Shown: positions 7,684 through 50,141 of the stretch, piece by piece | Position numbering within the stretch: the stretch's first letter is position 1 | Layout: each line of letters opens with the position of its first letter | Source of the DNA: Naegleria gruberi | Lineage: Eukaryota | Assembly (NCBI GenBank): GCA_000004985.1 | Contig: GG738899.1 | Length of the DNA stretch: 64,000 nt | Strand: one strand, 5' to 3' | Notes under the pieces: model-generated | What the model saw: only the letters and a program-made list of their open reading frames with translations | Databases searched by the model: none | What the model was told of the DNA's origin: nothing | Made by a program: the position numbers and the translations under genes

Positions 7684-8820
7684 ATACCAATTTGCATATT
7701 CTGTATCAATTTTACAGTGGTTGGCCAGTTTCCAAGGTCACTTATTAAGAAATGGTCAATTAACTTGCAAGTGACCCTTCCGGACACTTACAGTCACCAA
7801 AAACTATACCAATCAACTCTACTCATCGTCAACTACATTTTGATATATAATTTATTGACTGGTATGATACTTTCATATATGGTCATCTCAGCCCTCTAAC
7901 CTCCCATAGTAACTAAGGTATATACAGATCTCAATTTCCAGTGAGTGAATTTTAATTCTTTCAACTGTACCATGTTCCTGACATCAATTAGTGTATTCTA
8001 TATCAATTACATATGAATTGGTGATGTTTCCATTGACTTGAGTATACCTTGATTTGGTACCTTACCAAATATGGAAATGATGATATCTCTACTTCTACTG
8101 AATAGATTTGAATTGTTTCAACTCCAATACATTGCAAATATCATATAATATATTATGTATCATTTTCACTGTGGTCGGCAAGGTTTCAAGGGTAGGTCAT
8201 TAAGGATGGCCAATTGACTAACAAGTGACACTTCTAGACATTAACAGTCACAAATATCAATATCAATCACCTCCACTCACTGTCAGCAACATTTTGATAT
8301 ATAATTTATTGACTGGTATGATACTTTCATATATGGTAATTTCAGCCCTCAATCCATCCCATAGTACCTTAGGTATATACAGATCTCAACAAGTACTCAT
8401 CGAAATTAAATTCTGTCAACGCCAATCGATTTCTAACATCTAATTATGTATCGTGTATCAATTTCATATGAATTGGTGATGTTTCCATTGACTTTATTAT
8501 ACCTTGATTTGGTACCTTACCAAATATGGAAATGATGATATCTCCATTTCTACTGAGTAGATTTGAAATATTACAACTTCAATATGTTTAAAATATCGTC
8601 AGCAACATTTTGATATATAATTTATTGAGTGAAGTGATACTTTCATATATGGTAATTTCAGCCCTCAATCCATCCCATAGTACCTTAGGTTTATACATAT
8701 CTCAACAACTACTGAATAGATTTGAATTCTTTCAACACCAATCGACTTCTAACCTCAAATTATGTATCGTGTATCAATTTCATATGAATTGGTGATGTTT
8801 CCATTGACTTCAGTATTCCA
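7684..8820. repeat. Tandem satellite with a ~450-bp period (about 2.5 units)
   Basis: Three recurrences of the block: a first unit spanning about 7690-8140 that closes with ...aaatatggaaatgatgatatctc[tc]a[ct]ttctactga[ag]tagatttgaa; a core acattttgatatataatttattgactggtatgatactttcatatatggt[ac]at[ct]tcagccctc found at 7836, 8289 and 8607; and gtatcaatt[at]catatgaattggtgatgtttccattgactt found at ~8005, ~8455 and ~8770. Confidence 0.8.
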
Positions 8821-31608: not shown

Positions 31609-34467
31609 ATGTGTTTCGTCCAATTCTCTATTATTTGTCTTGTTATAGGATTGTTATTGATAACAAAAACAAATACCTTAGCTAATGAGCAACCAAAGCT
31701 GACCTATGAAATGATCACTCAAATCAAGGGTTGTCCTTGTCAAGAAGAAACTGGTGGAAACCCACACCTCATTTACGATTTTGGTGGAGGTGACATGAAG
31801 AACGTAGCATACTTTTCAGGCCTAGTTTATTTCCTTGATCAATGTAACAACAAGATATACTCATATGAATCCCAAGAAAACCAACAAATCTCAAAAAGTA
31901 ATCAAGTTTATGTGAACTTGGTGGCAGGTGGCGGTGACGATTCGTATTTTAATGGCACACATGCTTGTAGAAGATTTGGATTTGCAGGTGATGGTGGGAT
32001 GGCTATCAAAGCTCTGTTTAATAGACCTGTTCATATTGCGATAGATCATTCAAATGGTGATCTGTATGTCACTGATCAGGGAAATCATGCTATCCGAAAG
32101 ATTACTTGGGATAAGACCATCAGTACTGTTGCAGGCATAGGCAGATTTGGTACAGATTCCTTTATTGATGGAGTTCCTGCTACAAAGGTCAGTTTGGATA
32201 CACCCATCAAGTGTGTGATCGTGGCAGGTGAACTGTACATTCAAGAAAATAGAGGAATTCTTAGAGTTGGTAAAGATGGTACCATTTCTATAGTTATTGA
32301 CATCAAGAAGCACTTTTACTATGCAAAGCAATTCGAATTGTTGACATTCGACATTTCCCAAGATGGATCCATTGTTTACGTTGCCATGAGCTTTGATAAT
32401 TCAGTTTTTATCAAGCAGTATCATGAAAGTAATGAAACTTGGACTCATGTAATGGGTACAGAAAATTCTGAAAGCAGTTGTCTCTCTCTTCCCAATTGGG
32501 AAGAAGGTTATTATTTGAATCCTTCCAATTATACACTCTGCCATGTTACAGATATGATATTTACAAAAGATGGAGCGATGATTCTCATAGACACTTATTC
32601 CAAAAATTATACTGAGATTACTAATTCTGATGTTCCAATGGATATTCAACCAATGTCTGCAATTCATCGTTTAGAACAAGATGGAACGCTTTCTGTATTA
32701 ATGACCTCAACTAGAGGCTATACATTCGGTGGACTGGGGGTTTATCCAAATGGAGATTCAATAATTTATACTGTCCAAGAAGAAAATGTGAAGAAAATTA
32801 TTGAAACTCATATTACTTGTAGAGAATATTTGAAACTGTCCAGTGAAAGAAGGAACTGTGTACCAGTATGTGACACCAGACCAGCTGATGATCCAAAGGT
32901 CTGTGGTGGACATGGCACTTGTCAAGATACTAATAAGTGTGTATGTAATGATGGTTTCAATCCTGAAACATTTTGTAAATCTCCAATGTGTTTTGGAGAT
33001 TTTTCAGAAACTGGAGGATGTTCTGGTCATGGCAAATGCGTTGATTATGATAAATGTTCATGCAATTATGGCTATTGGGGGGACAATTGTCAATATCCAT
33101 GGAGTTTTACAATTATCATTATTGGTTGTATCATTTTGGTTGTAGCTTTAATGTGTGAGTTCAGTACTATCTTTGGTTGTTACATTTACTTGGACAACAA
33201 GAGGAAACATAAAGTGTTGGAGGGTGAACATTCAGACATGCTGGACGACTACAAGAGTGCTCAACAAGATGTTGCCGATATGAGGGGAATAGTTAAAGTG
33301 GTAGAATTTACAAATGCCATTTCCAGTAATCAAAGGTCCACCTTCAATATTAATGGAGAAAGCTATCCATGTTCGTTTGAGGCAAGAAAAAGGTACTTAC
33401 ATATTGAACCCAATGATTTTGGTGTTAAAACTGTGCTATGCAACAATTTAAGGCCATTACTAGTTTACAGCAAAATCTGGCAATTTACAATAGAGAGAAA
33501 TGATCAGATTGCAAGTATTCGTAATGTTGCTTACTTTGTAAATAGTTTAAAATCCAAACCATCCGAGTCCAAATCATCTGAGTATGAAGCTTATCCATAC
33601 CTATTTGTGACATTGAAACACTATCCACTTAGTAACCTTTCCATAAGGACTGAAAAAAGAATTTTACAAAAACTGTTTACAAAAGAAGGAATGAGAAAGG
33701 CATGTCTTAGTATGGCAAAAGCAATAGCTCGATTCCACAATACTTTGGGCTTAATCCATTGCGATATTGCTCTCAAAAATTTCGTAATTGAAGAACTTGG
33801 AAATGGAGAATTAGTTTTCATTTTGATAGATTTTGATGCAGCAAGATTCATCAAGCCAGAAGATGCCACAAAAATGTTACAGAACAATAAGCGAGTATCA
33901 GTGGATAGTTCACAAGGAATCCAACCGCTCTCAGACAATTCCCTAGATGAATATACTATTTCACATTTAACAGGAAACGAGGATTACCAAAATACGACAC
34001 AGAGGGATCTTTATGCCTATGGGGCAACCATTGAAGAACTTTACGATATTTTCCTTTTTCAAATTACAAACATAATTAATGAACTCACTGATATGATTTC
34101 TAATTCCAAGTTTACTGAAGAAAAAGAACGTTTAACAATGGAGATTAAGGCATTTGAAGAAGTAATTCCAAATCACTCTGAAATGTTGAACTATTTCGAA
34201 AGCAATGTGAAGCCAATTGTTGCAAAATTGAAAAATCATGAGTATCAAACAGACTACAAATCAGAAATGTATCTCATTGAACTATTTTCAGATGAAACAT
34301 TTTCTCAAACTCTAAAGAATGAACAACAAGTTTCACCTTTGTCTCACAATACAGCATCAGTCATAACTCCACATCAAAATCCAACACAAACAACAACAAC
34401 TTTAAGCTCAAATCAACCAGAAGAGATTGATGATGAACAAAGTATTCTTTTGCGCAATAGAAGATAA
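31609..34467 (+). CDS. Type-I receptor: signal peptide, NHL beta-propeller repeats, EGF-like modules, TM helix, and a cytoplasmic divergent protein-kinase-like (probable pseudokinase) domain
   Basis: Signal peptide MCFVQFSIICLVIGLLLITKTNTLA. NHL units such as FNRPVHIAIDHSNGDLYVTDQGNHAIRKIT...ISTVAGIG. EGF-like CVPVCDTRPADDPKVCGGHGTCQDTNKCVCNDGF...CSGHGKCVDYDKCSCNYGYWGDNCQ. TM IIIIGCIILVVALMC. Kinase-like core LIHCDIALKNFVIEELGNGELVFILIDFDAARF; no GxGxxG/VAIK recognised. Intronless 952-aa ORF. Confidence 0.6.
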   Translation: MCFVQFSIICLVIGLLLITKTNTLANEQPKLTYEMITQIKGCPCQEETGGNPHLIYDFGGGDMKNVAYFSGLVYFLDQCNNKIYSYESQENQQISKSNQVYVNLVAGGGDDSYFNGTHACRRFGFAGDGGMAIKALFNRPVHIAIDHSNGDLYVTDQGNHAIRKITWDKTISTVAGIGRFGTDSFIDGVPATKVSLDTPIKCVIVAGELYIQENRGILRVGKDGTISIVIDIKKHFYYAKQFELLTFDISQDGSIVYVAMSFDNSVFIKQYHESNETWTHVMGTENSESSCLSLPNWEEGYYLNPSNYTLCHVTDMIFTKDGAMILIDTYSKNYTEITNSDVPMDIQPMSAIHRLEQDGTLSVLMTSTRGYTFGGLGVYPNGDSIIYTVQEENVKKIIETHITCREYLKLSSERRNCVPVCDTRPADDPKVCGGHGTCQDTNKCVCNDGFNPETFCKSPMCFGDFSETGGCSGHGKCVDYDKCSCNYGYWGDNCQYPWSFTIIIIGCIILVVALMCEFSTIFGCYIYLDNKRKHKVLEGEHSDMLDDYKSAQQDVADMRGIVKVVEFTNAISSNQRSTFNINGESYPCSFEARKRYLHIEPNDFGVKTVLCNNLRPLLVYSKIWQFTIERNDQIASIRNVAYFVNSLKSKPSESKSSEYEAYPYLFVTLKHYPLSNLSIRTEKRILQKLFTKEGMRKACLSMAKAIARFHNTLGLIHCDIALKNFVIEELGNGELVFILIDFDAARFIKPEDATKMLQNNKRVSVDSSQGIQPLSDNSLDEYTISHLTGNEDYQNTTQRDLYAYGATIEELYDIFLFQITNIINELTDMISNSKFTEEKERLTMEIKAFEEVIPNHSEMLNYFESNVKPIVAKLKNHEYQTDYKSEMYLIELFSDETFSQTLKNEQQVSPLSHNTASVITPHQNPTQTTTTLSSNQPEEIDDEQSILLRNRR

Positions 34468-34650
34468 TCAGTTATTAGTTTAAAATCGTTTGATTTCTTA
34501 CAAAATTATCTTGCATAAAATTCAATTATACAAATTGAAATTACAATATTTTGATGTTAGCACAATCTTGTTGACTAACTCAAAGAATATTCAACCTTCC
34601 TTATTGTAATCCAACTCTTCCCAATTTGTAAATATTCATTAATAAGTACG

Positions 34651-36451
34651 ATGATGGAGCAAATAAGAAACACATCCTTCCAAAACTTGCCTATTTCTCT
34701 CTCACTACTGCCGAATTTCAAAAAAATCAACACCTTTCGATTCAAAAAACCATTCGAAACCTTTGGTCCCATCATATCTCTAAACTTTAAAAAAACTAAA
34801 CCAGCATGTCTTCACTGCCCACAACTCATAATCAACACCACACAAAATACTACAATAGAAAGTCTTCCACCGAGTCCAACTAATTCGTCCAACTCTAAAC
34901 GAAAGAGTTTCGAATTAAAATTCAATCCACATGATTACGTTCTAGTTTTCGAACACGTCATGAATGATAAAGAATGTAAAGATCTTTTCCATGAATATTT
35001 GACGAAACATGCAAAATCTGCTGAATTGTTGGATTTTCTTAATGATTATCGTGAATATGTGGTTTATTACTTTAGTTTGAATTTGAGGGCGAAACCTTCG
35101 TGTTTGATAAAGGACGTTTGGAAGAAAGTGCCAGAGAGAAAGACTGAACCTGAGAAGGAAAGCGAAGAAGTGTTGGTTATTCGAAAGAATAAGAAATTAG
35201 ACGATTTTCATGCAATGGCAAGGAATTTAATGGAAAAATATATTATCGAGGGTTCACAACATGAAATTAATATTAGTTCTTGTAGGAAAGATATCATACA
35301 GAGATGGAATAACATTAATAACTTTTTGATATCTGACAGTATTAGGACGACAGTTCAAGGATTGACACAAGTTATTGATTTGTTGAATCCTGAAACCTTG
35401 TTCAGAAGTTCAAGTAATTTAGTTCGAGTTGATTTGGAATATGATCAATTTCCTCGTTTTGTTAGAAGTGATTTAGTTTATCAATTCCTAAAAAGGAAAG
35501 GTGAAGGATTTACTCGATCTGTGGCTTTGAATGTTTCACAGGGATACAGATTAGATATTAGATTTAAACCTCACGAGTTGGTTTCCAAGAAAATTGACGA
35601 CAAGATGATTTATTTCGGTAAGTTGTTGAATATTCGAAATGTTTAATGATTTTGTGAAATAATTAATAGGTTACACCCTCCTACAAGATACACCTGACTG
35701 GGAATGTATTCATGACAAGAATGAATCTCAAGTTTTCATCTCCAAAACCAATTACACATTCGGTCTGAATTCGAATAATTTGAAACTAAAGAAACTTACC
35801 TTCTCAATTCCTTACAGTTTAGAGAACTTTTGGGCAATCTACGTAGATACAGAACTATACACGAAATACAAAATATTCCAAACGAAAAACTACAAATTTC
35901 GTCAATATATTGAACCAAATTCAGGTAAAACCGATCAGTCAACTGGAGAATTATTGGATAATCAACTGGCAATGGCTCAAGTTCAATCCTCACTTCGTCT
36001 CGTTCCATTTACCAAATCTAGACAATATTCAGTGATTACTACAGTGATTTATGAACCTCTTCTTGATTGTATCGTTCAAATTTCACCAACTTATAGAGAT
36101 CCAAATGTTGGAAATGAAAATGTGTTGGTTATTGGACTTTCGTACAGTTTTTTCTTTAGAATGAGAGATGGCTCGACTAGAGTAGTTTTGATTACGTATT
36201 CTGATATGAATTTTAATATTCCTTCCTTTGTAGAATCTCGAGCTCTGGTATTTAGTGTCAAAAATTTCAAAAAGGGAATTGTCAAAGCTTTGGATGAATT
36301 GACAGGAAAAGACAAGTCAAAAGTAATTGAATACAAGGATGATCAAGAACGTCCTTGGAATATCATCATGGAGGTCAATAAGAACATGTTCCCAAATCGA
36401 TCTTGGTTTAAGGAATGGAATGAACAAATGGAAGAAAAAGAAGAGCAATAA
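34651..36451 (+). CDS. RGS-domain protein fused to a C-terminal START-like lipid-binding domain. Two exons, intron 35618-35669 (gtaagt...taatag, phase 1)
   Basis: RGS helix signatures FEHVMNDKECKDLFHEYLTKHAKSAELLDFLNDYREY ... FVRSDLVYQFLKRKG. After splicing: ...MIYFG|YTLLQDTPDWECIHDKNESQVFISK... ...RVVLITYSDMNFNIPSFVESRALVFSVKNFKKGIVKALDEL, a START-like beta-grip. Confidence 0.5.
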
Positions 36452-36813
36452 GGAGTTGTTTATAAATGGAATTTTTACTTATTCTATAACATCAACAACA
36501 AAAGTTCGCCTCTCTCTCACCTGATTGAATCTTCTCCTGGGTGTTGAGGGGAAATTTGGAGTTGTATTCAATTTTTGGGTTCCTTATTCGAGATATGAAA
36601 ATCCTTCACCACCTGCATTCTCAATTTCGATGGGAACTGATCTAATCTTGTCTCAATACGAGGAGGTAGTGACAAGACTCATTTACACTTTCAATGTTCA
36701 AGAAATTAAATTTACCAGAGAGTAGGTAAACCATAAAATTCATTAGTAAATATAACATTCAGTTCACTTTCTAATAATTAATTGGTCACCAATTCTAACT
36801 TAGTAAAATAAAA

Positions 36814-36886
36814 AGCCCTAGAGATGTTTCGATCATCTGACCTCAACCTTATGAGGGTTATGCTCTCCCACTGAGCTACGAGGGCT
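36814..36886 (-). tRNA. tRNA-Met (anticodon CAU) gene with an initiator-like T-loop (AUCGAAA: A54, A60), followed by a T5 Pol III terminator
   Basis: Reverse complement: GCCCTCG-TA-GCTC-AGTGGGA-GAGC-A-TAACC-CTCATAA-GGTTG-AGGTC-AGATG-ATCGAAA-CATCT-CTAGGGC-T, then TTTTT. D, anticodon and T stems are fully paired. The acceptor has a G1:C72 pair and one C6:U67 mismatch. Confidence 0.75.
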
Positions 36887-37366
36887 TTGATCAACAAAAC
36901 CAAAAAATATCAAAATTATCGTAAACGAAAAAGATTTTAAATTCCAAAAATTCATTTAAATTAAACTTTAAAGTTTGTTAAAATTGGTTTTTACAATGTC
37001 ACCGTAGTGTGAACACCAAACTGTAAAGTGTTGAACTCGTCAATTAGAAATATTTGAACTTTACAATAAAAAATTCTTGCCTGAATTAATTGACAATTGT
37101 AGCCATGCACTTCCACTCCTGTTTTAAAGAACCATTACAATGAACATTTTTCCGTACAAAGATAAAATGTGCTAAGTGATAATTCCTTGTTAATAACCAG
37201 CTTAGATGTTTGGGTTTCCAAATTCTGTTTCTGGCCATAACAAGCTGTCATTCTACTTTATTGATCACTGACAGCTACCAAATGATTGGATTGAACAAAA
37301 ATAAACACTTCAAAAACCTCTTCATTGTTCTTTTTAAAAATAATAAATTTAAAAAAAACCAAACAA

Positions 37367-38461
37367 ATGAAATCACTATTGCTACTTTTCACACTCTTGG
37401 CAACTGCAATTCTCATTGCTGGCCACAAAGTCACAGAAAAGACAATCATCAGCTCTGAAAAGATAGGTTACGGTGTGTTGAAGGGTCCAGAATCTATTGT
37501 GTGGGATCCAGTCCATGCTGATGTATTATATACTGGTATTAATGATGGTAGTATCATGAGAGTAAATGTCACGTCAGGTGTCAGTACTGTTTACGCTTAT
37601 TCTGTCCCAGCTTTGAATGCCACACAAAGAGCTGTCTGTGGTACAAGCGTGTTATATGAAGGTACCTGTGGTAGAGTTTTGGGAATGGTATTTGATAAGA
37701 ATAACAATTTAATTGTCGCTGATGCTTACAAGGGATTGTTGAGAATTTCCAGAGCTAATCCAAGTCAAGTTGAAGTTTTGGTCAATTCATACAATGGAGT
37801 CCCATTCAAGATGACAAACTCAGTTGTCTTGTTGAAGGATGGTAAGACTGTCTATTTCACTGATTCTTCCCTTCTCTATTCAAGACTTTACTTTGTGTCC
37901 ATCGTTGTGGCCAACAATCCAGATGGAAGATTATTCAAATTCGATTTGGAAACCAAGCAATTGCAAGTTGTCATTTCTGATTTGAAATTTGCCAATGGTA
38001 TTGCTGTTTCCAAAGATGAATCCTTCCTCGTTATCAATGAATGTTCATCTGGCTCATTAAGAAGATTCTACTTAAAGGGAAGAAAGGCCGGAACTAATGA
38101 TGTTTTCGTTCAAGATATTGGTGGATATGCTGATAATATCAAGACTGATGATGATGGCAATTTCCTAGTTGGTTTATTCTCAAATACCACTCAAGAAGTT
38201 ACTGCCATTCATGATTCTGCCAAGTTGAAGAATATTTTCCTGACCATTGTGCCAGCAACTACCACTTTGGGAATGATTGTTCCACAAGGATTGGTTAAGA
38301 AGGTCAATCAAAAGGGAAAGATTACAACTGTTTATTCTGATAAGACTGCTACTTTTGCTTTGCAAGTTTCTGAAGCTGATGTCAGAGGTGGATATTTGTA
38401 TTTGTGTTCAGTTTTGAACCCTTGGTTGACCAGAGTTAACTTGTCAACTGGTTTGCAATAA
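37367..38461 (+). CDS. Secreted strictosidine-synthase-like / APMAP-type six-bladed beta-propeller protein
   Basis: Signal peptide MKSLLLLFTLLATAILIAG. GPESIVWDP...LYTGINDGSIMRV...GRVLGMVFDKNNNLIVADAYKGLLRI...DGRLFKFDLETKQLQVVISDLKFANGIAVSKDESFLVINE...RRFYLKGRKAG matches the Str_synth family consensus. Confidence 0.65.
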   Translation: MKSLLLLFTLLATAILIAGHKVTEKTIISSEKIGYGVLKGPESIVWDPVHADVLYTGINDGSIMRVNVTSGVSTVYAYSVPALNATQRAVCGTSVLYEGTCGRVLGMVFDKNNNLIVADAYKGLLRISRANPSQVEVLVNSYNGVPFKMTNSVVLLKDGKTVYFTDSSLLYSRLYFVSIVVANNPDGRLFKFDLETKQLQVVISDLKFANGIAVSKDESFLVINECSSGSLRRFYLKGRKAGTNDVFVQDIGGYADNIKTDDDGNFLVGLFSNTTQEVTAIHDSAKLKNIFLTIVPATTTLGMIVPQGLVKKVNQKGKITTVYSDKTATFALQVSEADVRGGYLYLCSVLNPWLTRVNLSTGLQ

Positions 38462-39021
38462 GTGTATTATATTGAATGTGTTGATATTTTCACATTTGTA
38501 AATAAAATTGTAAATTAAAGTTTCAACACAAATAATCAAATTTTCAATTTTTTAGAAATAATTAAAAAAAAATTAAAATCATGATTTCTGTTGCTCTTTC
38601 TTGATATCGATTATTATTCGAGATGCTTGATTTTTGTGATTAGATTAACAACAACAAGCACTGGAAAGTCCTCGTCTTCGGAACGACACTTCCAATTTTC
38701 TTCTTCTCAATTAATATTAATCAACTTTACCTGATGACTGATGTAATATTGTCATCATGAATGATGAACAAAAGTACTTTGTTTTCACCAGATCACACAA
38801 TTAGATTAATAACAAACAACTCGAACAAACAACTGAAACAAGCCTTACAATATCACCACAACAGAAAACTTCCATAATAATACCTCACGCAACAACACAG
38901 AGAACAAGAGAACAGGTTCACATCACCGTAAAACACTACCCAAAGAACAAAATTGCTGCAACAACAACAAATTGTGCAATGCTGCTCTCTCTGAAACGTT
39001 CACTTTGCACTGCGCATCTAG

Positions 39022-41331
39022 ATGCCTTCTTTGGCTCTGAAACTACTCTTGGTAGGAGTAAAGAAAATGTCTCTACAGCATCAGCAGCAACAGAAAGAAC
39101 AAGTACTGCAGTCAAATGCAAATAATGGACAAATTGTGGATGTTAGTACAGGTAGTGATGATGATAATAATGGATTGGAAGATGAAGGAAAAGGAGTGAA
39201 TTTGCATCATGTTCATAACATGTATGGACAAGTTAATAATGATGAAAATAATGGAGTAGTAACAACAACAATTGAAAGGACAATAGTAATGGATAATGAT
39301 GAGGATTCGGGTAGTAGAATAGCACTGGAATTGAATGCCATTCCACAGGAAGCTACACTGAATGGAAATGTAAAGACAACAACTTTGAATGATGTAATTG
39401 TTAAATCTACTTCACAGATCAAGTTGGAATTTCATGATGATCCCCTAGTTGAGGAACATGAGAGATGTTTCATGGAGTGGAGAAATGTGTGCTATCCAGT
39501 GGGAGGTAATAATTTAATTGTGAGAAATGTGAGTGGATTTGTTGCTCCTGGAAAGATTACAGCCATTATCGGTTCAGCGTTGAGTGGAAAAACAACTCTA
39601 TTGTCCATTCTATCACAAAGAGGAAATTACAAGGATTTTGGAGGATTAATTCTAATTAATGGAAAAGTTGTAAGGACATGTAAGGAAGGACCATGTGCTA
39701 AAATCTCATCAACTCAATACAAATCACTGATAGCTCATGTCCCAAAGCATTTTACAGCCTCTCATCCATTTCTTACTGTGAGGGAGATTTTGAATTTCAC
39801 AGTCAAACTGAAATTGACCAGTGTTAAAAGTGCACTCACCAAATGCAGAGAAGAACGATTAGAATACCTATTGACCAAGTATGAGCTGAAAGAAAAGGAG
39901 GATGAATTGTATTCAAAACTAGGAGTAGCAGAGAAGAGAAGATTGCACATTGCTGTACAGAATGTTCTCAAACATAGAGTTTTGCTACTGGAATATCCAA
40001 CTGATGGTTTGGAATTTGGAGAGGCATCCAGAATTATTAGAATTATGAAATCAATTGCCAAGATGGGAGTTGGTGTTGTTCTTACTTCACACAAACCAAG
40101 TTTATTAGAATTGGAATTATTCGACTACATTTCAATACTCAATAGAGGTAATCAATTATATTTTGGTCCTCCTGGTGAATTAATTCAATACTTTTCGAGA
40201 ATTGGTGTCAAACTTCACAACACCAACCATAATGAAGTGGGATTCTTGTTCCAAGTCATTTCTCTGCTTCAGGCAGAATCATTCCATCCAATGTACACCG
40301 ACACTTATGATACAAAGGAAAATACAGAGAGATTTTCCATAGAGTACGTAAGGCAAACAGAAGAGTTTTACATTCCAATGAAAAACAAGGAAGAAGCACC
40401 ATATTTGACCAATGACCTGACTCGTTTTCATTTTGAACCTTATTATGCCAACTTTTTCTATTCAGTATTCTTTCTGATGGCTAGAAATTACTTGAGCCGA
40501 ATTAGGAATTGGAAGGTTGAATTTCTAATTCCACTATTGGAAAAATTGGCTGTTTCAATATTTATTGGACTGCTTTATTTCCAAATTGATGAGGGAAATA
40601 TGTCGCTGAGAGGAAAGATTTTCACCTTTCTCAATCTTAATATCTCCCTTACTTTTACTGCGAGCTTGAAGAATCTTATCAATCAAATACCAATGTTAAC
40701 TCAGGAGAGAAACAGCTCTATCTACAGAACCAGTGTATTTTTCATTTCAAAAACCATTGAGGATTTGATAGAAACTTCGATTTTATCTCTATTATTTGGT
40801 TGGATTGTTTACTTTATGACTAACTTGAGATTGGAATATGACAGAGTATTAACGTTTGGACTGATTTTTGCAACCTACCATTGGACTTGTGTCAGTTTTG
40901 CGCAAATGCTGGTTTCTCTGATTCCTGTCCCACCATTGCTAAATTTAATTACACCAGTAATTAATATCATGTTCATATTAACGAGTGGGGTGTACGGTTT
41001 TCCGAACACTGATTGGTTGTCGTGGTTTAAATATTTGAACTATCTCTTTTATGGTTTCAAAGCAATGTCTCTCAATGAATTTGATATTCAATTGGAAATT
41101 CCAACAAATACTACCTGGCCTGCTAATTATTATACCAATGGAACCTATTTCCTCTACAAAAATTATGGATATTCAGATCCTCATTACATGATGTGGGTCT
41201 ATTTTGGAATTCTCACTTCTTTTTGGATTGTTTGTAAGATTCTGAGCTATGTTGGATTAAGATTAGTGTATGGAAAGAAGAGTTATATTCGACTTGCCAA
41301 GAAACTACTACGTTCATGGAAGAATACTTGA
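39022..41331 (+). CDS. ABCG-type half transporter (NBD then a 6-TM ABC2 domain) with non-canonical Walker B and signature motifs
   Basis: Walker A GKITAIIGSALSGKTTLLSIL. Signature region SKLGVAEKRRLHIAVQ, compared with the canonical VSGGERKRVSIA. Walker B VLLLEYPTDGLE, compared with LLFLDEPTSGLD (Asp to Glu and catalytic Glu to Tyr). H-loop VVLTSHKPS. Six hydrophobic segments lie in 40480-41290. The N-terminus is Q-rich. Confidence 0.6.
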   Translation: MPSLALKLLLVGVKKMSLQHQQQQKEQVLQSNANNGQIVDVSTGSDDDNNGLEDEGKGVNLHHVHNMYGQVNNDENNGVVTTTIERTIVMDNDEDSGSRIALELNAIPQEATLNGNVKTTTLNDVIVKSTSQIKLEFHDDPLVEEHERCFMEWRNVCYPVGGNNLIVRNVSGFVAPGKITAIIGSALSGKTTLLSILSQRGNYKDFGGLILINGKVVRTCKEGPCAKISSTQYKSLIAHVPKHFTASHPFLTVREILNFTVKLKLTSVKSALTKCREERLEYLLTKYELKEKEDELYSKLGVAEKRRLHIAVQNVLKHRVLLLEYPTDGLEFGEASRIIRIMKSIAKMGVGVVLTSHKPSLLELELFDYISILNRGNQLYFGPPGELIQYFSRIGVKLHNTNHNEVGFLFQVISLLQAESFHPMYTDTYDTKENTERFSIEYVRQTEEFYIPMKNKEEAPYLTNDLTRFHFEPYYANFFYSVFFLMARNYLSRIRNWKVEFLIPLLEKLAVSIFIGLLYFQIDEGNMSLRGKIFTFLNLNISLTFTASLKNLINQIPMLTQERNSSIYRTSVFFISKTIEDLIETSILSLLFGWIVYFMTNLRLEYDRVLTFGLIFATYHWTCVSFAQMLVSLIPVPPLLNLITPVINIMFILTSGVYGFPNTDWLSWFKYLNYLFYGFKAMSLNEFDIQLEIPTNTTWPANYYTNGTYFLYKNYGYSDPHYMMWVYFGILTSFWIVCKILSYVGLRLVYGKKSYIRLAKKLLRSWKNT

Positions 41332-42018
41332 ATGCATTCGTCCTTCCTCAATAAAGATAAAGATCATATACAATCAAACAACTACAGCAGGGTAAAGATA
41401 ATATATCCTCAACAACACTGTTTTAACATGTCCATAAGTAAATAATTTTACATGACTAAACAAGTCTTCTACATCCAAACTAGAACATCAAACCAATTGG
41501 CCATCAAATCATCATTCCACTACATCCTCCTTTCCATTTCATGATTGTATTCATTTCTACTCTGGCCCGAAATATCACACTACGTTACATTCCAGCATAC
41601 TTTCACCCATCATGTACTTGCTTATCACAAGAGATCTTTCAAACAACAACATTTAATCATTCATATTATAAGCAGCAAATAATTACCTTCCTTTCCCCTC
41701 ATCTCATCCATCACCAAATGCTTGCTGTGCTGCTTGACGAGGACACAATTTTTTCATCATTAAAAAAAATCACTAAAATTTTAAGCGGGAACCTTCAAAG
41801 CCTTTGTTCTTCCTCCTTTCCTTCACTGCACACGGCAAGAAACAACAACAACATCATCAGATTATATTGTTGTAGTAATAGTATTTGAAAAGGATACCTT
41901 AGTTATAACTAATTGTTATATTTCCGCTAACGAACGATTATTAAAATTATATATTTCTAGAAGAAGTATTATCATCATTGTCATCATCATTGTACTATAT
42001 TATTATTATTATTAAAAT

Positions 42019-43490
42019 ATGAGAGTATTTAAACAACGTATTAAAGTTAAACTTGGAAAGGCTGAATCTACTCAAGACCCAGAAGGATACAATGACTTAC
42101 GTGATCAAGTGAAAAAGACTGAAAATTATGCTAAAGGAGCTTTAAAGATTGTGAGAGGATATTGTCAAAAATCCGAAGCAATTACAAAGGTTCAAAATGA
42201 AGTTGGTCAATACTTGGTAGAAAGTGGTATGCAAACAAATGATGAAGGTAAGTTAATTTCTAGAGGATTCGGCTCAGTTAATAATTTTATGATGTTTGAT
42301 TGATGAAAATGACGAATTGACACAGTTGGTGAATCTTTGATGAAAATTGGAGAAGGATTAAAATCACTTGCTACTATTCACCATGCCATGTTGGTTAACA
42401 TTGTTGAAAAGTTTATTCAACCAGCTACAGAATTCAAGAAGGAAGTCAAGGATTCTGAAGTTTCTCATAAAAAGTATGACAAGAAGCGTTTGGAATTTGA
42501 TGCCCAAGTAGATCTTGTCAATTCATTAAAGCAAAAGGGTGAAAAGGTAGATCCACAAAAAGTTCAAACAGAAGAAGAAAAACAAACACAATTTGACAAT
42601 GAAAAGGATGAAGCTTTTGAAGAAACATTGGAAGAAACTTGTGATGTTTTGGTAAAGAGACAAACCAAGCACTTGGCACAACTCAATGAATTACTTTTGA
42701 GTTTCCACCACTTTTTTGCTGAAGGTTATACTCTTACACACGATTTGAAGGAACCATTGGAAAAATTAATGGAAAAATCCAACAAGAAAGCTTCCACATT
42801 CAAACAACAAACAGTGGAAAGTGTTTTGGGTGGAGGAGGATCTATCAGATCAACACCATCACAATCTTCATTCACACCTTCAACTAAATCAAACACTGAA
42901 ACATCAACTTCAACAGTCACAACAACCTCAACAGCCAAGTCATCAACTAATACTACTTCAACTAGTGCTGTTGGTGGTATGGGAGCTGCCTTCTCAGCTG
43001 CCAAAAAGACAGAAAGTGCTGCAGCAACAGTTTTGTGTAAATGTAAGGCCATGTATACTTATGATGCTCAGGATAGCACAGAAATTTCATTCACTGAAGG
43101 TGAAACTATTTTGGTTTATGAAAAGGAAGAAGGTGGATGGTGGAGAGGTGCTAGAGAAGCTACTCCAACCAAGTCTGGTATCTTCCCATCTAATTTCGTT
43201 GTAGATTCTAGTGCTTCTTCAGGTAGTGGAAAAACAACAACTGCATTGTATGATGTAAGTATTATTTGTTTTATTGGAATTGATTTATTAATTATTTTAT
43301 CATTTAAAATTATTTTGTTAAATTATTTAAATAGTATGAAGCTCAAGAATCAAACGAATTAACTTTCAAAGCAGGAGAAGTTATTGAAGTCATTGAGGAA
43401 GCAGATGGAGGGTGGTTTATGGGCAAGAATTTGTCAACAAACAAGGTTGGTCTTTTCCCTTCAAACTTTACAGAACTAGGAGCACAATAA
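42019..43490 (+). CDS. BAR-domain adaptor with an S/T-rich linker and two C-terminal SH3 domains. Three exons; introns 42248-42325 and 43255-43334
   Basis: BAR-like coiled N-terminus (...NDEG|VGESLMKIGEGLKSLATIHHAMLVNIVEKFIQPATEFKKEVKD...). SH3-1: KAMYTYDAQDSTEISFTEGETILVYEKEEGGWWRGAREATPTKSGIFPSNFV. SH3-2 is reconstituted across intron 2: ALYD|YEAQESNELTFKAGEVIEVIEEADGGWFMGKNLSTNKVGLFPSNFTEL. Both introns have a gtaagt donor. Confidence 0.6.
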
Positions 43491-43609
43491 ATATAAATAA
43501 AAATATTAGAAATTAATTTATTAAATTTAAATGTTATTATAATTCCAATAATTCCTAATTATTTAATTGATATTTATTTAATTAATAAATAAAATATTTC
43601 AAAAATAAT

Positions 43610-44344
43610 TTAATTACTCTTAATAATTCCATCAATCATTGAAATCCAATCAGCAGCAGTGAAATCATATCCATTGAAAACATTAACACCATTAACAAAG
43701 AAGAATGGAGTTCCATACAATCCTCTTGAAGTAGCATAACCAAACATTGAAGCAGCTTGAGCAAATGATGATTGACTATTCATTTCACTCAAATATTGTT
43801 CATAACTAATCAATCCCAATGGTTGAACATAGGTAGCATAGATCAAGTTGAAAATTTGAGCTTGATTCATATTCTTCAAATTAGCATTTGAAGCAGGTGA
43901 TTGATTACTAAAGAATAAATCCAAAAACTTCCAACAAACATTTCTATCAGCCTTTGAAAACTTGGAAACAATCGAATAGGTTTGAGCAGAATAAAATCCA
44001 GCAATATGCATTGGCAATGGCATCAAATGAAGACTAAAAACAACCTTATCTTGATTTCCAGAAGTTCCATTATTAAAATAATATTGAACAAGAGGCTTGG
44101 TAATACTTTGGAAATGTGTAGCACAATCAGGACAAGTCAAATCCAAGAACATTTCAAATTCAACAAGTGTATTCGGAGAGGAATTTCCAATAGTCCATGA
44201 ATTTTTCAAATTACTAATTCTTGGTCCGACTGGTGTAATGGCGAGTGATGATTGAGTAGAAAGGAATAAAATCATCATTACCATCATCACGATGGAAGCA
44301 AAAAGAGCGCGTGATGAGCGGGTGCTGCTGAGATGTTGAGACAT
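43610..44344 (-). CDS. Secreted DsbA-like thioredoxin-fold thiol:disulfide oxidoreductase (bacterial-type)
   Basis: Signal/anchor segment ALFASIVMMVMMILFLSTQSSLA. CxxC active site in FEMFLDLTCPDCATHFQS. DsbA C-terminal cis-Pro region GLYGTPFFFVNGVNV. Intronless. Confidence 0.55.
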   Translation of the reverse strand: MSQHLSSTRSSRALFASIVMMVMMILFLSTQSSLAITPVGPRISNLKNSWTIGNSSPNTLVEFEMFLDLTCPDCATHFQSITKPLVQYYFNNGTSGNQDKVVFSLHLMPLPMHIAGFYSAQTYSIVSKFSKADRNVCWKFLDLFFSNQSPASNANLKNMNQAQIFNLIYATYVQPLGLISYEQYLSEMNSQSSFAQAASMFGYATSRGLYGTPFFFVNGVNVFNGYDFTAADWISMIDGIIKSN

Positions 44345-44799
44345 TTTTTTTTGATGATTCTTCTCCGAACGGAGTTAAAACGGATCAGTTCAAATAGATT
44401 AATCTTTCAGAAAGAAGGAGATTCTGTCTTAATCTTTGACAATATTCGAATATGAACTGTTTCGATTAATTTTTATGAGAAATCTGAATATTAAATCATA
44501 CAAGAAATTGAGATTAATTGGATGAGTCAAACCCTTACTGTTCAACTATTCATAACCTTGAAACTGTCATTGTAACAAAAAACTGTAAGACTTTACAATA
44601 AGAGTGTTGTAAAGGAAACATTTCACATCACATCTGACATCAAACAATTTATTTGTGATTTTTGGCAAGTGTTTGCCATCCTCCTAATTAATAGGCATAC
44701 CCTATTTGTTGGTGCACTTCCGTATTCACATCAGTTCGATAATATTTATTTAAACTACCGCTTCTTTTATTAGAATCTCACAAAAAACAGAAAAAAAAT

Positions 44800-45475
44800 A
44801 TGCAAACTAAATCTTCCCTCCTCGTTTTATATTTCACACTAGTTGCAACTGTTTTGTGTGTTTTGACTTGTTCGGCTCAAGCTTCTATCAACTTGAACGT
44901 TCCAATGAAAACTCAAACTTTTCAGTCAACTTTCAAGTATCCTAGCGCTCAAGCTGCTTATCAAGTTTTGAAGACAACTGAAGTTATGTTCAGTTTGCAA
45001 CCTTATGTGTAGGTATTTGTTGTTAAATTGTTGTTTTTCTTATCAATTTATTCCGTAAATTAACAATTATTAATTTGACATTTTGACATTTAACAGATAT
45101 TATGTTCAAATTATTTCTCAAACTGATACCTCTCGTGAATTAGATTTTGCTGAGAAAATCCCAGTCTTCTTTGGTGTTTTCAATTATGATACTGGTAAAT
45201 TGAGAGCTGTCCAAGCTTTTGACAATTCTCAAAGATCCATCGTGTCAAATGTCCCATTCCCAGGTGGTTTAGGAACTTTGGTTGCTAATCTTTCATTCAC
45301 TGAATCTGCAGATGTCGACGAAAATGGCTTAAAGACAATTACTTGTAATGAAATTGTCAATGGTCAAGTTTTCTTGCTTGCTAAATTATTTGTTGAAGAT
45401 AGTGTTAAGAGTGCTCATACTCAATTGGTTGCTGATATTGCAAATTATTTCACTACTCATCCAGCTAGTGCTTAA
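44800..45475 (+). CDS. Small secreted protein of unknown function. Two exons, intron 45009-45096 (gtaggt...taacag)
   Basis: Signal peptide MQTKSSLLVLYFTLVATVLCVLTCSAQA. Exon 2 continues the frame (…LQPYV|YYVQIISQTD…). No motif recognised. Confidence 0.45.
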
Positions 45476-45756
45476 ATAAAAAGTTAACATTTTCCCGCCA
45501 ATTTACTAATTAGGACATTATTTCTCTTCATAGCAAGACTGGAAAATTGTTTTTTGGCTACCTGAAATCTGCGAAGTCAGTTTTTACCAGCTGATTATTT
45601 TTAGTCGCGAGTTTTTGATATGGTCTAGCTGGTTTTGACCATCCCAGCGCTGGGATGGTAAGCTTAAAAATTCTCCACCAGCTAGTCTTGCTATGTCTTT
45701 AACTAAACAATGAGAATTTGCTAGTGGAATATGAAAATATTTAATGTAGTTTAAAC

Positions 45757-48700
45757 TTATTTAAAATATGGATATTTGAGTAATTGTCTAGCTTGTGGTC
45801 TTGTTGCGCTATCTTTACCAACCATTTCAATAACGAGTTCAATAAGCTCAGTTGAGTAAATATTTGGTTTTTGCATATTTTCTGTAAGGATTTGTTTAAC
45901 TTGAGAACTGTCTTTAGAAAAATGGAGATGACTGATGGCAGTTGTAGTGTCATGTGTCATTAATTGATAAATAGTTACACCCAAACTGTAAACATCTGTG
46001 TTAAAACCATAACTTGCTCCCAAACCTAGTTCTGGACTCTGTGAAAATTGTTAACTTTCGAATAGCAATATACTAAACTTACCAAAAACATTGGAGTTCC
46101 ACAATAACTGTTATTTGCAGAAAGTGAATTATCCCTCGCCAATCCGAAATCTGCCAAAACTACCTGAATGTAATCTTGAGTCAATTCCTTAATAAAAATA
46201 TTCGATTCCTTAACATCTCTGTGAATCAGTTTCTTCTCTTCATGAATATATTCTAAAGCATTCAACATTTGGAACAATACACTTTTCAACAAGGTTTCGG
46301 ATATTTGAACTTTAAGTAAACTTGTCAAATCTCCCTTGTCATAATATTCCATCTCAATAACCAATAATTCATTCTTATCAACGAACATGTCATTCACCTT
46401 AATAATATTTGGATGTGCCATGTTCAATAATTGTAAACCTTCTTTCATGAATTGGTTTAGTTCAGAATAGGATTGGAATTTGATAGCTTTTAGAGCTTTG
46501 AAAGAATTGGTTTTGACATCGAAAGCTCTAAAGACAGATCCGAAACCTCCACTTCCAATCTTTACCATGTCCTTGAAACGACTCAATGGATCAAAAGAAG
46601 AAGAACTTGAGCTAGTTCCATTTGTGGAAGACGAAACTGATTGGAATTCCATGGTTGGTCGGAAGAATATGGAAGCTTCAGATTCGGGAAAATCGGTTGC
46701 TGTTATATCATTCTTGGATTCTATCATTTCCAAGTTGAGGTTTTCATTTGATTTCTTTTTTTTCCTAAAATAGAAAATTAGAATGATAATCAAAATTACA
46801 ATAATGACAATTAATAGAAAGACTGAAAGGATGGGAACTAGAGTTGCTATCAGAACTACTTGAGTTTCTTGTTGCTTTGAACTTTCTGGTGAGATTCGTA
46901 ATTGAGAACATTCGTTTCCAGAATAGTTTAAAGTACAGTTACATTGATTAGGAGAAACACATTGTCCTCTTTCTATGCCATTACATGCATCACTTGAATT
47001 CTTACCATAACAAATTGGAAGGCAATTCTCAAAATTTGAAATGAAATATCCAGTTGGACAGTTGACTGAAATTTTGTAAACAGTTCTAGCATTTGCAAAA
47101 AATATTTCACCAGTAGATTCACTAACAACAATCGAATTAGGATTACTATAAAAAACCATAATAATATCAACCTTTCCTTCCTTGTTTAGTTTCTTCAATC
47201 TTCCATTCTCAGCAAAATAAACTATTCCATTAATATTCGAAACATAAAGTGTACTAACAGCCTGTTGAGGGATATAAACAGTCGTTACAATTCCATTGCT
47301 ATCAATTTTCCTTATACCAACCGTATCTACATAATAGATTGAATCGGATAAACTATCGTAGCTTAATGAAACAGCACTTGAAATGATAAAATCAGTTGCT
47401 AGGGATCCGTCTGAGGAACGAGTGCCTCCACCAGCTACTTTTGAAATGGTATTATTTGAGGCCAATCTTATCAAGATATTATCTGAAAAGAATAAATAAC
47501 CACCTTCCTTATATGGTACAATTAATTTTGGACGTGGAATGTCTGTTAATCGATTGTTGACAACAGAACTTCCAGATCCAAACAAATCAAACGTTATCGT
47601 ATCAGTGAATGCTCGTACAATACAACGACACTGGTAGAAATTCTTGAGAAAAGGTTTTCAGGCATAATTGAGTCAACTACCACAACACTGCCTTGGAGTT
47701 TGGCTAATTTTAAAAATGCATGGGGCAATCCGGAGTGCCCTGTCTGTAGGGTATTGTCATTGTATTGTTCTGTGATTTCCATAATCTGCAAAGATATATT
47801 GGTTTGCAACTTTAGTAATTCCTGAAATTCCAGAAAGTTTTGTTTTCCTATTGTCAAACTCTGAGTTGTAATAACCTCCCAAACAAGGACCAATCAGATT
47901 TTTAACTCCCTTGCTTTGTAGATTGTATTGGAGTACTAGATTTTCACTTTGACTATATAAAATTAAATTATTTCCTGACATGGCTAAATTGGCCGAAAGG
48001 TCAACAAATTGTGGATCTTCACCATTGTATTCTCTGTAAACAGCTCCATAACCAGCTATTGTACTTAGTTTAGATGTTGTGTCGTTATACTTTCTTATTA
48101 ATTGATTTCCAGAATCGCAAATAATAAGTGTTCCATTTTGGTCAACTGTAAACGCAGTTGGATATCTTAATTTGTTATCATCAAAACCTGGTACGGTTCC
48201 AATCTGCGTGTTGCCGGCATTAGTAAGGTATCCATCTTCTGAATTGGTGTAAAACGACATTCCCTTATAGCGTCCCATATTTGTTACCTTGTATGGAAAA
48301 GTTGTAAGATATTGGAAAATATTTTCTATTATGATTGCAACAGAATTACCATCTGTAACAAATATACTTGTTTGTGATTGAATAGTTTCTACATAGATTG
48401 AGGTTGGTGCCTTAAAAAGATAATCAATATTCGAAACTATTCCATTCGAAACTATTCTAATTCTTCTATTTCCAGTATCTGAAATATAGAGAATACCATT
48501 ATTGTAGAATAAACCATTTGGATTGTTAAGCTGACAATTTATGGCCAAACCTTCTCCATTATATCCAGCAGTTCCATTTCCAGCTACTCTATAAACAGTA
48601 TCTGAGCTAATATTATAACGAATTACTCTATGATTATTCGAATCTGATATATACAATGATTGATAACTACTATCCATTACCAATGATTGAGGAAAATTCA

Positions 48701-50141
48701 GTAAAGTCTTGGTTCCTGCCATTCCATCAATGTCCGATAAAAACCCCGCTAATCCGGAATCTGCCCCAACCACTATTTTCAAAGTTTTGGTAGAAATGTC
48801 CAATTTCAATACTCGATTTGCATAACTTTCACTCATATAAATATTTCCCTCCAAATCTACAGCAATTCCTCTACATGCTGTCAATAGTTGAGTTTCGGCC
48901 ATGTAGACGAAACCTTGTCCTAAAGATTGAATTCTTTCAGTATTTGGGGAGAAACCAGCAAAGTTGTGCACATAGTTTTGTTCAATCACTCTAATTTTTT
49001 GATTATTTTTTTCTAAAAAGTAAACATTTCCATCAGACGAAACTTCAATACTTGTTGGATTGTAAAGAAAAAATTCAGTATCAAAGTGTTGCATTCCATT
49101 TCCTGCAATTGTTGTGATAGAACCATCTGTTGTTATCTTTCTAATACGATTATTTGCAGAATCTGCAAAGTAAACTTCATTATTCGAAACTCTAATGGCC
49201 TGTGGATAGTTTAGTTTAGTTTCAGTAGCACGTTTTCCATCTACATCAAACCCACATCCATTGTATCCTGCAATTGTTTCCATTTGTCCATTAAAAACTC
49301 TTCTCAATTTGCAATTGAACGTGTCAGCAATATAAATTTCACCTGTAGTATTCGAAACATGGACAGAATGTGGATAATTCAACATGGATAATGTTGCCAC
49401 ACCATCCGAATAACCAGCAGTTCCATTTCCAGCAATTGTCGTAATATTATTCGTAACAAACGAAAGCTTTCGAATAATATGATTTTCTTCTTCAACAAAA
49501 TACAATTCTCCACCATTTCTCTCAACTACAAATAAACCTCTTGGATTTTTCAAATTTGTTACCAATGCATTTCCATCTCCATTCCAAGAATCAACAAAAG
49601 TTCCAGCAACAATTGTTACCTTACTCAACAGATCGGAAGTAAAATTAAAAATTTGCTTTCCAGTCGAAACATAGATCGTATCCAGGGAGCTGCCACTCAT
49701 TCGTATTGAAGTAATTGCACGGTAGTCATTTCCGTTTCTTGTTGAAATGACAGTTTGACTAGTGACATTTATGGCGGTCAATTGGGAATCGTGAAGAACA
49801 TAAAGTGTGTCAATGCCATTGAAGGACATGTCAAGGGGTTGATAGAGTTTCAAGTTTCTGGCATGTTGGGATTGTCCAATAAATTTGGAGAGTTTATATT
49901 CGAGGGGAAGATTTTGGCCTTGTGTAAAAATTGGCAGCAATAATAAAAATGTCAAAGTCACTACACAAAATATCAGATAATTTGGCAAGTGACAGATGGC
50001 GTGTAACATGCTGAATTTTTTTTTGTTGGTTTGGAGTGTGACTCCGCCCTTTCCAGACTGAAATCTTTCAAAGGTTCCAACAAGACACTTCAATCTCTTT
50101 AAGCTTCTAAAAAGAGAAATTAATCGAATTTGTAATTTCAC
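45757..50141 (-). CDS. Large receptor Ser/Thr kinase: signal peptide, ~18 NHL repeats, EGF-like Cys module, TM helix, and a complete protein kinase domain. Multi-exon; the 47586-47760 junction is unresolved
   Basis: Upstream ORF 47757..50141 begins with a signal peptide (MLHAICHLPNYLIFCVVTLTFLLLLPIFTQG). It carries many NHL units (e.g. YIADTFNCKLRRV, YFADSANNRIRKIT, YISDSNNHRVIRY, YISDTGNRRIRIV) and stops mid-repeat (…ADYGNHRTIQ*). ORF 46026..47585 continues with NHL units, CNCTLNYSGNEC, TM LIATLVPILSVFLLIVIIVILIIILIF, and kinase motifs GSGGFGSV, ALKAIK, HRDVKESN, DFGLARD, GTPMFL|SPE across a 44-bp intron at 46039-46082 (gtaagttt...ttcacag), then DVYSLGV. The frame of the downstream part has no ATG for ~150 codons, so it must be spliced to upstream sequence. 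Confidence 0.6.

Follow-up and report, generated by a model that had tools for sequence, protein, structure and literature searches.

The 64,000-nucleotide stretch of Naegleria gruberi contig GG738899.1 (assembly GCA_000004985.1) analysed here, hereafter the window, carries two genes, gene 1 (31609-34467, plus strand) and gene 2 (50009-45757, minus strand), that probably encode two independent, lineage-specific type I receptors in which a module of NHL beta-propeller, EGF and transmembrane (TM) helix is fused to two different tails of the protein kinase fold (probability about 0.6). The domain combination is unusual and appears to be lineage-specific; judged from the sequence, what is new is a lineage-specific receptor Ser/Thr kinase together with a kinase-like receptor. 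An earlier note, made from the DNA letters, had described the genes as paralogs and had presumed gene 1 to be a pseudokinase partner of gene 2. The layout that it saw in both genes, with an NHL propeller, one or more EGF modules, a single TM helix and a kinase-fold tail, is borne out by Pfam matches, hydropathy and motifs. The proposed kinship holds only at the level of domains, no evidence was found for the partnership, and the reading frame of gene 2 is broken in the assembly at ~47760-47600, a feature that the note had missed.

Gene 1: ectodomain, topology and kinase-fold tail

Gene 1 is exactly the open reading frame (ORF) delimited at the outset, an intact single exon of 952 codons. It would stay open by chance with a probability of ~1e-28, as gauged from the other five frames, in which stops occur at ~6.6% per codon. 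No protein identical to it, or more than 41% identical, was found in a collection of 5.8 billion proteins. Type I topology is indicated because an N-terminal signal-like segment is combined with one TM helix that is followed by the basic stretch DNKRKHK. The features of gene 1 are as follows.

31609-34467 (+): gene 1, intact single-exon coding sequence of 952 codons for a predicted type I membrane protein (ORF list, translation)
31609-31680 (+): predicted signal peptide, aa 1-24, MCFVQFSIICLVIGLLLITKTNTL (hydropathy peak at aa 1-21; cleavage site by eye)
31765-32811 (+): six-bladed NHL beta-propeller, ~aa 53-401 (Pfam, AlphaFold2, Foldseek)
32857-33099 (+): two EGF_2 modules of tenascin/teneurin type, aa 417-497 (Pfam, cysteine pattern)
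33094-33186 (+): TM helix, aa 496-526, then DNKRKHK (hydropathy, sequence)
33391-34248 (+): divergent protein-kinase-fold domain, ~aa 595-880 (motifs, profile comparison)

Pfam recognizes the propeller above its cut-offs with both TEN_NHL (30.8 bits, 2e-07; cut-off 27.1) and NHL (26.1 bits, 8.2e-06; cut-off 20), and the EGF pair with EGF_2 (30.4 bits, 5e-07; cut-off 22.1), to which EGF_Teneurin adds a match at 9.8e-06. An AlphaFold2 model of aa 25-500, a prediction built with an alignment of NHL proteins, contains 24 strands that form six four-stranded blades, as many as had been estimated before, with predicted local distance difference test (pLDDT) values of 80-94 in the blades. When this model is compared with the PDB by Foldseek, a teneurin-like protein ranks first (1.4e-13), followed by the lumenal NHL domain of SOQ1, teneurins, NHLRC2 and TRIM71/Lin41. 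Propellers of the SMP-30/paraoxonase type rank below the NHL propellers in that list, and Pfam matches of the propellers to SGL/SMP-30 and Vgb_lyase are weaker and under the cut-off. Identification as NHL rather than SMP-30 therefore stands, and the model supports a closed six-bladed NHL propeller as the ectodomain of gene 1.

The tail of gene 1 departs from a standard kinase at several positions. The glycine loop has degenerated to IEPNDFGV (aa 602), as had been recognized earlier together with the retention of HCD and DFD, and APE has been lost, with ISH in its place. A Lys in LVYSK (aa 619) lies at the spacing expected of the beta3 Lys, 18 residues past the FG of the loop, and the equivalents of HRD, DFG and DxWSxG are HCDIALKN (aa 717), DFD (aa 741) and DLYAYG (aa 800). 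By sequence the tail is nearly an orphan. A word-indexed search of the 5.8 billion proteins returned no match to it, and Pfam gives it no Pkinase match. When 1.84 billion representatives were searched exhaustively with phmmer, just two proteins emerged (E 1.1e-4 and 5.5e-4), both of them ordinary Pkinase proteins that align over the region from hinge to alphaF. Below threshold, Pfam matches the stretch around the catalytic loop and DFG to two members of the kinase clan, Kdo (18.9 bits; cut-off 21.3) and Pkinase_fungal. Combined with its paralog, described next, in a profile of two sequences, gene 1 matches a kinase profile with an hhalign probability of 97.9% (E 6.7e-13). Homology of the tail to the kinase fold is supported by these comparisons.

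The closest database match of gene 1 is N. gruberi NAEGRDRAFT_71145 (D2VQ32, EFC41035, P0001), which lies on a separate 352-kb scaffold and is 41% identical over the best BLASTP alignment, spanning the N-terminal 49% of gene 1. Its public model (792 aa) ends right before the catalytic loop, in a spurious NSKIKHILLWYSN, and the annotation thus conceals the domain. P0255, an ORF from an ENA assembly that falls in the 90% cluster of D2VQ32, runs on through a full kinase-like tail that contains HIDLKLDN and DMD. Over 319 aa, this tail shares 30% identity with the tail of gene 1 (E = 9e-27). By this similarity of both ectodomain and tail, NAEGRDRAFT_71145 is the true paralog of gene 1. The extreme C-terminus of gene 1 (34390-34464; last residues EEIDDEQSILLRNRR) carries an acidic dileucine-type motif of the endocytic-sorting kind, EQSILL, which is missing from the paralog and may be a chance occurrence.

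Measured against the PF00069 features of active eukaryotic protein kinases, gene 1 lacks the glycine loop and APE. The earlier term pseudokinase is not established as a description of gene 1, because three classical catalytic acid/amide residues are kept, namely the HCD Asp, the Asn and the first, metal-binding Asp of DFD; all three are also present in the paralog (HID..N and DMD). Pseudokinase status is plausible but unproven. Retention of HxD..N and DxD at 30% identity hints that the tail has a function, and loss of the glycine loop together with a change of the putative beta3 Lys to Arg in the paralog argues against normal catalysis. We regard it as rather unlikely that the tail is a catalytically active atypical kinase. 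Such a reading could draw on HxD, the Asn five residues on and the first Asp of DxD, on the Lys at beta3 spacing 18 residues after FG, and on weak Pfam matches to the Kdo/WaaP and fungal kinase families, not all of which possess a classic glycine loop; it must also accommodate the missing glycine loop and APE Glu, the Arg of the paralog and an N-lobe that is not confidently modelled. If gene 1 is one of two independent receptors, as we prefer, it would form a small Naegleria family with NAEGRDRAFT_71145. Gene 1 itself, with a single propeller, a pair of EGF modules and a kinase-fold domain that has diverged strongly, would most likely signal as a scaffold or as a weak, atypical kinase.

Gene 2: a probable receptor Ser/Thr kinase gene with a disrupted frame

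Gene 2 runs from the ATG at 50009, at the head of a good signal peptide, to a TAA stop at 45759-45757. Position 50141, previously taken as its outer limit, is merely the upstream end of the open frame. A first ORF (50009-47760, 750 aa) is rich in NHL repeats (Pfam NHL 4e-30, TEN_NHL 1.8e-20), and a downstream ORF (47585-46083) contains degenerate blades, the EGF module, the TM helix, RKKKK, a Ser-rich juxtamembrane segment and the kinase up to GTPMFL. The features of gene 2, all on the minus strand, are as follows.

50009-45757 (-): gene 2, gene for a predicted type I receptor Ser/Thr kinase of ~1,400 aa, interrupted as assembled (translations, gene-model building)
49913-47067 (-): NHL-repeat ectodomain of ~950 aa, ~aa 33-985 (Pfam NHL 1.1e-30, TEN_NHL 6.2e-24)
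~47760-47600 (-): frame disruption (three-frame translations: frame 0, then +1, then 0)
47024-46908 (-): single EGF module, CLPICYGKNSSDACNGIERGQCVSPNQCNCTLNYSGNEC (cysteine pattern; BLASTP to the gene 1 EGF, E 2e-05)
46868-46755 (-): very hydrophobic TM helix, then RKKKK (hydropathy maximum 3.9; conceptual aa 1052-1089)
46580-45760 (-): protein kinase domain of Ser/Thr type with all catalytic motifs (Pfam Pkinase, PDB matches)
46082-46039 (-): 44-nt GT-AG intron (GTAAGT...CAG) between GTPMFL and SPELGLG (splicing restores the frame; GC 27%)

The ectodomain scores well above the Pfam cut-offs (NHL 102.8-104.6 bits, TEN_NHL 73.7-85.1 bits); EGF matches to the single EGF module fall under them. 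A blade profile finds eight clear NHL blades at aa 132-640 and degenerate blades elsewhere. The earlier count of ~18 blades is an estimate that the profile supports for these eight; for the rest, length (~52 aa per blade) and the spacing of YxxD..N..IR suggest a total of ~18-19, or roughly three propellers. The NHL region is 33% identical to that of the N. lovaniensis protein C9374_010972 (P0118).

Removal of the 44-nt intron joins the kinase in frame to SPELGLG..DVYSLG..TRPQARQLLKYPYFK and the stop at 45757, so that SPE, DVYSLG and the subdomain XI Arg are read in frame. The spliced domain contains GSGGFGSV, AIK, KEG, HRDVKESN, DFG, SPE, DVYSLG and TRPQAR, which include every motif listed in the earlier note, the last two of that list only after splicing. 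The part before the intron already matches Pkinase at 5.5e-35 (121.5 bits), and the domain has an HRDVKESN loop and a GTPxxxSPE motif of the kind found in Ser/Thr kinases. By PF00069 the domain has the sequence features of an active protein kinase; its continuity with the rest of the gene is interrupted. Among solved structures, the best match is MST3/STK24 (5.9e-30). With the domain alone and with a two-sequence profile, the STE20-group kinases MST3/STK24, STK25 and MST4 come first, followed by SLK/LOK, MST1/2, NEK1/2/7 and ULK1, with bit scores of 118 for STE20, 110 for SLK and 105-107 for NEK and ULK. Plant receptor-like kinases (RLKs) and animal receptor kinases match weakly, at E 1e-10 to 1e-14, in a search of the large collection, values that are not directly comparable with the E of 1e-24 to 1e-30 obtained for STE20/NEK kinases against solved structures. 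The best-scoring relatives are cytoplasmic STE20, SLK, NEK and ULK kinases. This agrees with the earlier expectation that no well-known eukaryotic receptor-kinase family would claim the domain, which we provisionally place outside the animal receptor tyrosine kinases (RTKs), TGF-beta receptors and plant IRAK/Pelle RLKs. A metagenome scan for relatives of the kinase gave generic kinases alone, at 25-36% identity, and the 5.8-billion collection holds no protein more than 42% identical to the TM and kinase half.

The frame disruption falls between the first and the downstream ORF. Frame 0 stops at a TGA (47759-47757) just past the blade motif YIFADYGNHR and meets two more stops thereafter, three in total; frame +1 is open for the next 57 codons, which by eye form a degenerate blade (LPHAFLKLAKLQGSVVVVDSIMPENLFSRIS), and frame 0 resumes near 47600. 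In this segment, frame 0 has a strongly negative codon-usage score and frame +1 a mildly positive one. Pfam finds no match in either the isolated frame +1 peptide or the frame 0 peptide, and the claim of a blade in frame +1 is based on openness, codon bias and inspection by eye. The GC content of the segment is 39%, compared with 33-34% in exons and 11-27% in four verified introns of the window, which are 44-88 nt long and have the donors GTAAGT, GTATTT or GTAAAT. All GT/GC..AG pairs of 22-401 nt were enumerated across the break. An open frame was obtained with weak donors alone (GTTGCA or GC), for introns of 147-180 nt or longer; these candidates would delete the blade motif YIFADYGNHR, and a conventional intron was rejected as unlikely.

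The simplest reading of the break is two indels of opposite sign ~170 nt apart, which could be real, in a recently disabled gene, or could be an error of assembly or haplotype merging. The possibility that gene 2 is a dead unitary pseudogene, that the window holds no functional NHL receptor kinase and that at most a 750-aa secreted NHL protein is made deserves serious attention, even though we do not favour it. Two frame changes, three frame-0 stops, an exon-like GC of 39%, the restriction of possible introns to weak donors and the absence of any public protein more than 42% identical to the TM and kinase half would all fit a dead gene. They have to be set against a gene model, EFC39508, implied at the locus by accession order, against indels that cancel in length and could therefore be an assembly or haplotype-merging artefact, and against the downstream exons of 501 and 93 codons, which are both open, are joined by a clean intron and encode every catalytic motif. 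Chance openness of the long ORFs is estimated at 1e-28, 1e-21 and 1e-16, the last value applying to the 501-codon exon. Any inactivation would have to be recent, because the downstream exons are intact and carry a perfect motif set. The reference copy of gene 2, broken twice inside the third propeller, would thus be either a very recent pseudogene or the product of assembly errors, and the preferred reading takes gene 2 to be a receptor Ser/Thr kinase or to have been one until recently.

Relation of the two genes and their locus

In BLASTP comparisons, the NHL regions of genes 1 and 2 are 25-34% identical (E 7e-10), one EGF module 37% identical and the kinase cores 26% identical over 82 aa (E 5e-5). 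The top matches of the gene 1 tail in the whole library are unrelated kinases, not gene 2. The closest kinase to that of gene 2 is P0127, with 42% identity over the whole query and 51% in the kinase domain; it is encoded by a single ORF (26-2134) on a 2.9-kb environmental contig (ENA ERZ27315067 k141_505436, L001) and comprises at least five EGF modules, the GPS motif CLTTHLTSFAV, a TM helix and the kinase. The GPS match in Pfam (19.1 bits) lies just below the cut-off, and a GPS-bearing single-pass receptor kinase is itself unusual. The N. lovaniensis protein C9374_010972 combines NHL, ~20 EGF repeats and a TM helix with a short tail and has no kinase. Taken together, these sequence relationships describe a shuffling of domains around an NHL-EGF-TM cassette of Naegleria rather than the duplication of a receptor into a pair.

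The model of the earlier note, in which the two genes are paralogs and gene 1 is a pseudokinase co-receptor that pairs with gene 2 in the manner of plant NFR5/NFR1, is consequently very unlikely in our judgement. It retains domain-level similarity in its favour, and this similarity is all that remains of the paralogy, given that the true paralog of gene 1 is on another scaffold and that the gene 1 tail is no nearer to gene 2 than to unrelated kinases. The two genes are separated by 11 kb and by ~eight unrelated genes, they are on opposite strands (gene 1 plus, gene 2 minus), and the frame of gene 2 is disrupted. The intervening genes include an RGS gene, a strictosidine-synthase-like gene, an ABCG transporter and a DsbA-like gene, and a tblastn search of the window with both receptor proteins found no further family members there.

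Ten ORFs of the window are letter-for-letter identical to GenBank/RefSeq proteins of N. gruberi NEG-M, all from one 331-kb scaffold; the exact matches span EFC39435-EFC39444 and EFC39504-EFC39509. The window is a subtelomeric scaffold end, because telomere-type (CCCAAA)n arrays stand at its start (1-370 and 3518-3895) and flank a run of N (gap 828-3517). Short (CCCAAA)n runs also occur at ~525-590, the G-strand being TTTGGG; unique sequence and the gap separate the two arrays, which represent either an interstitial array or a mis-joined end. Gene 1 lies ~28 kb and gene 2 ~42-46 kb from the inner array, and regional GC is 32-36%. Subtelomeric direct repeats at 4292-4665 and 7696-8819 are spaced by 311, 316 and 455 nt and are 78-90% identical.

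Proteins of the neighbouring genes are all present in the collection, unlike gene 1 and the TM and kinase half of gene 2. The four ORF groups found from 27.5 to 37.3 kb have just two plus-strand models, EFC39436 and EFC39437, to share, and gene 1 is for this reason probably unannotated. On the minus strand, EFC39507 at 43613-44344 and EFC39509 at 52558-56157 imply, by accession order, that EFC39508 is the model at the gene 2 locus; this model evidently does not include the kinase half and differs from the 750-aa ORF. Full forms of the receptors thus seem to be absent from public protein sets.

Several neighbours merit brief description. Upstream of gene 1 is a gene with a NIT (nitrate/nitrite-sensing) domain (29011-31347, plus strand), whose downstream ORF matches cyclase weakly, and downstream is an RGS-domain gene (34651-35643, plus strand), so that gene 1 is flanked by two signalling genes. 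EFC39438 (37367-38458, plus strand), annotated as strictosidine synthase, has a signal-peptide-like N-terminus and, going by its family, is presumably another six-bladed propeller. EFC39509 is a 1,200-aa ORF (52558-56157, minus strand) with a TNP/THAP9-like RNase H domain and is possibly a domesticated or intact transposase. The exact 12-mer TTGGCGGGAAAA, which resembles an E2F site, occurs three times in the window compared with 0.23 expected:

695-706 (+): first copy, subtelomeric
45490-45501 (-): second copy
50201-50212 (-): third copy, ~190 nt upstream of the gene 2 ATG

The copy upstream of gene 2 is a possible promoter element.

Significance and comparison with known systems

If gene 2 works as its domains suggest, its roughly three NHL propellers would serve to bind a ligand or a surface outside the cell, and clustering would unite the STE20/NEK-like kinase domains, leading to autophosphorylation of the activation loop and then to downstream signalling. 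The structure of the genes, the identity of their domains, the signals of topology, the motifs and the relationships are shown by the analysis; binding of a ligand, dimerization, catalytic status and biological role are inferred. Several points weigh against the interpretation as two independent receptors with different kinase-fold tails. The assembled sequence of gene 2 offers no continuous frame across 47760-47600, which leaves a full-length functional receptor hypothetical. Its assignment as STE20/NEK-like is provisional, as it depends on a margin of 8-20 bits and not on phylogeny. The kinase-like model of the gene 1 tail came from an alignment containing kinases, with the result that fold searches are not independent, and its N-lobe has low confidence; the paralog has Arg in place of the putative beta3 Lys of gene 1, which argues against catalysis within the limits of a low-confidence N-lobe alignment.

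It may also be asked what such ectodomains would recognize. One suggestion, which we would put forward only tentatively, is that these proteins act as receptors in adhesion or phagocytosis, with prey or substrate as their target, and that their tails just modulate the cytoskeleton, with no sensing of soluble ligands. NHL and EGF ectodomains occur in adhesion proteins, teneurins are top fold matches, NHL and EGF are also found in kinase-less Naegleria surface proteins with many EGF repeats, and P0127, the nearest kinase relative, bears a GPS motif, which is typical of adhesion receptors; this suggestion differs from the preferred explanation in the nature of the ligand alone. A broader and speculative extension of the two-receptor reading is that Heterolobosea independently built a class of receptor Ser/Thr kinases and kinase-like proteins, with NHL/EGF and, in a relative, GPS fused to STE20/NEK-like kinases, which has been hidden by missing or truncated gene models; gene 2 would then be functional, with breaks that are assembly errors, and gene 1 would represent a conserved pseudokinase-receptor family.

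Receptor kinases are usually treated as separate inventions of animals (RTKs and TGF-beta receptors) and plants (IRAK-type RLKs). If the reading preferred here is correct, the combination of NHL/EGF with an STE20/NEK-like kinase in a discoban amoeba would be another independent receptor-kinase solution, and the gene 1 family would place a decayed kinase fold beside a receptor kinase of the gene 2 type. The annotation gap matters as well: Naegleria kinome and receptor counts may be underestimates, because full receptors are missing from protein sets and the annotated paralog, D2VQ32, is truncated before the catalytic loop. Practical impact will be modest until expression, an intact gene 2 and a ligand are established.

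The Naegleria pangenome paper puts the number of predicted kinases at 265 and includes 'SOQ1' homologs, which are presumably NHL proteins, in its listing; NHL receptor kinases are unmentioned in it (PMC9928731). Full-text literature searches brought up no account of NHL-propeller receptor kinases from Naegleria or any other protist, and no described eukaryotic family with an NHL-EGF ectodomain and a kinase was found, in keeping with the earlier remark that this is not a standard family. Several known systems nevertheless share parts of the design.

NHL sensor kinases are best known from bacteria (PknD-type). PknD of Mycobacterium tuberculosis joins a Hanks-type kinase to an extracellular six-bladed NHL propeller and resembles the Naegleria genes as a single-pass membrane protein in which an extracellular NHL propeller is coupled to a Ser/Thr kinase. 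It differs in having an N-terminal kinase, a single, C-terminal propeller, no signal peptide and no EGF. The order in the Naegleria genes is reversed (signal peptide, propellers, EGF, TM helix and C-terminal kinase), which sets them apart from the PknD type, and the kinase of gene 2 has its best scores with eukaryotic STE20/NEK kinases, not with bacterial PknB-like ones. Plant LysM/LRR receptor kinases with pseudokinase co-receptors (NFR5, SOBIR1, IRAK/Pelle) are likewise distinct, in that the Naegleria kinases are provisionally placed outside TKL/IRAK and the ectodomains are unrelated.

Teneurins and teneurin-like proteins (PDB 9ifo, 6fb3, 7bam) share EGF_2/teneurin-type EGF modules and an NHL propeller with the Naegleria genes, as the TEN_NHL and EGF_Teneurin matches reflect. 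They are type II proteins with eight EGF modules, TTR, an FN-plug, a YD shell, a toxin-like C-terminus and no kinase, and their domain order and orientation are reversed. Pfam finds none of these additional domains, and no YD/RHS or Tox-GHH match, in gene 1 or gene 2, which have just NHL and one or two EGF modules and are not teneurins. The closest likenesses are nearer to home. P0127 is, like gene 2, a single-pass receptor with EGF_2 modules and has juxtamembrane and C-terminal motifs in common with it; its ectodomain, as far as it is visible on a contig that lacks the 5' end, has EGF repeats and GPS instead of NHL, and it has no intron at the SPE site. D2VQ32 departs from gene 1 in having ~five EGF modules (four EGF_2 by Pfam) and a coiled-coil juxtamembrane segment, and shares with N. 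lovaniensis C9374_010972 the design of signal peptide, NHL propeller, EGF repeats and TM helix on which both receptors of the window appear to be built.

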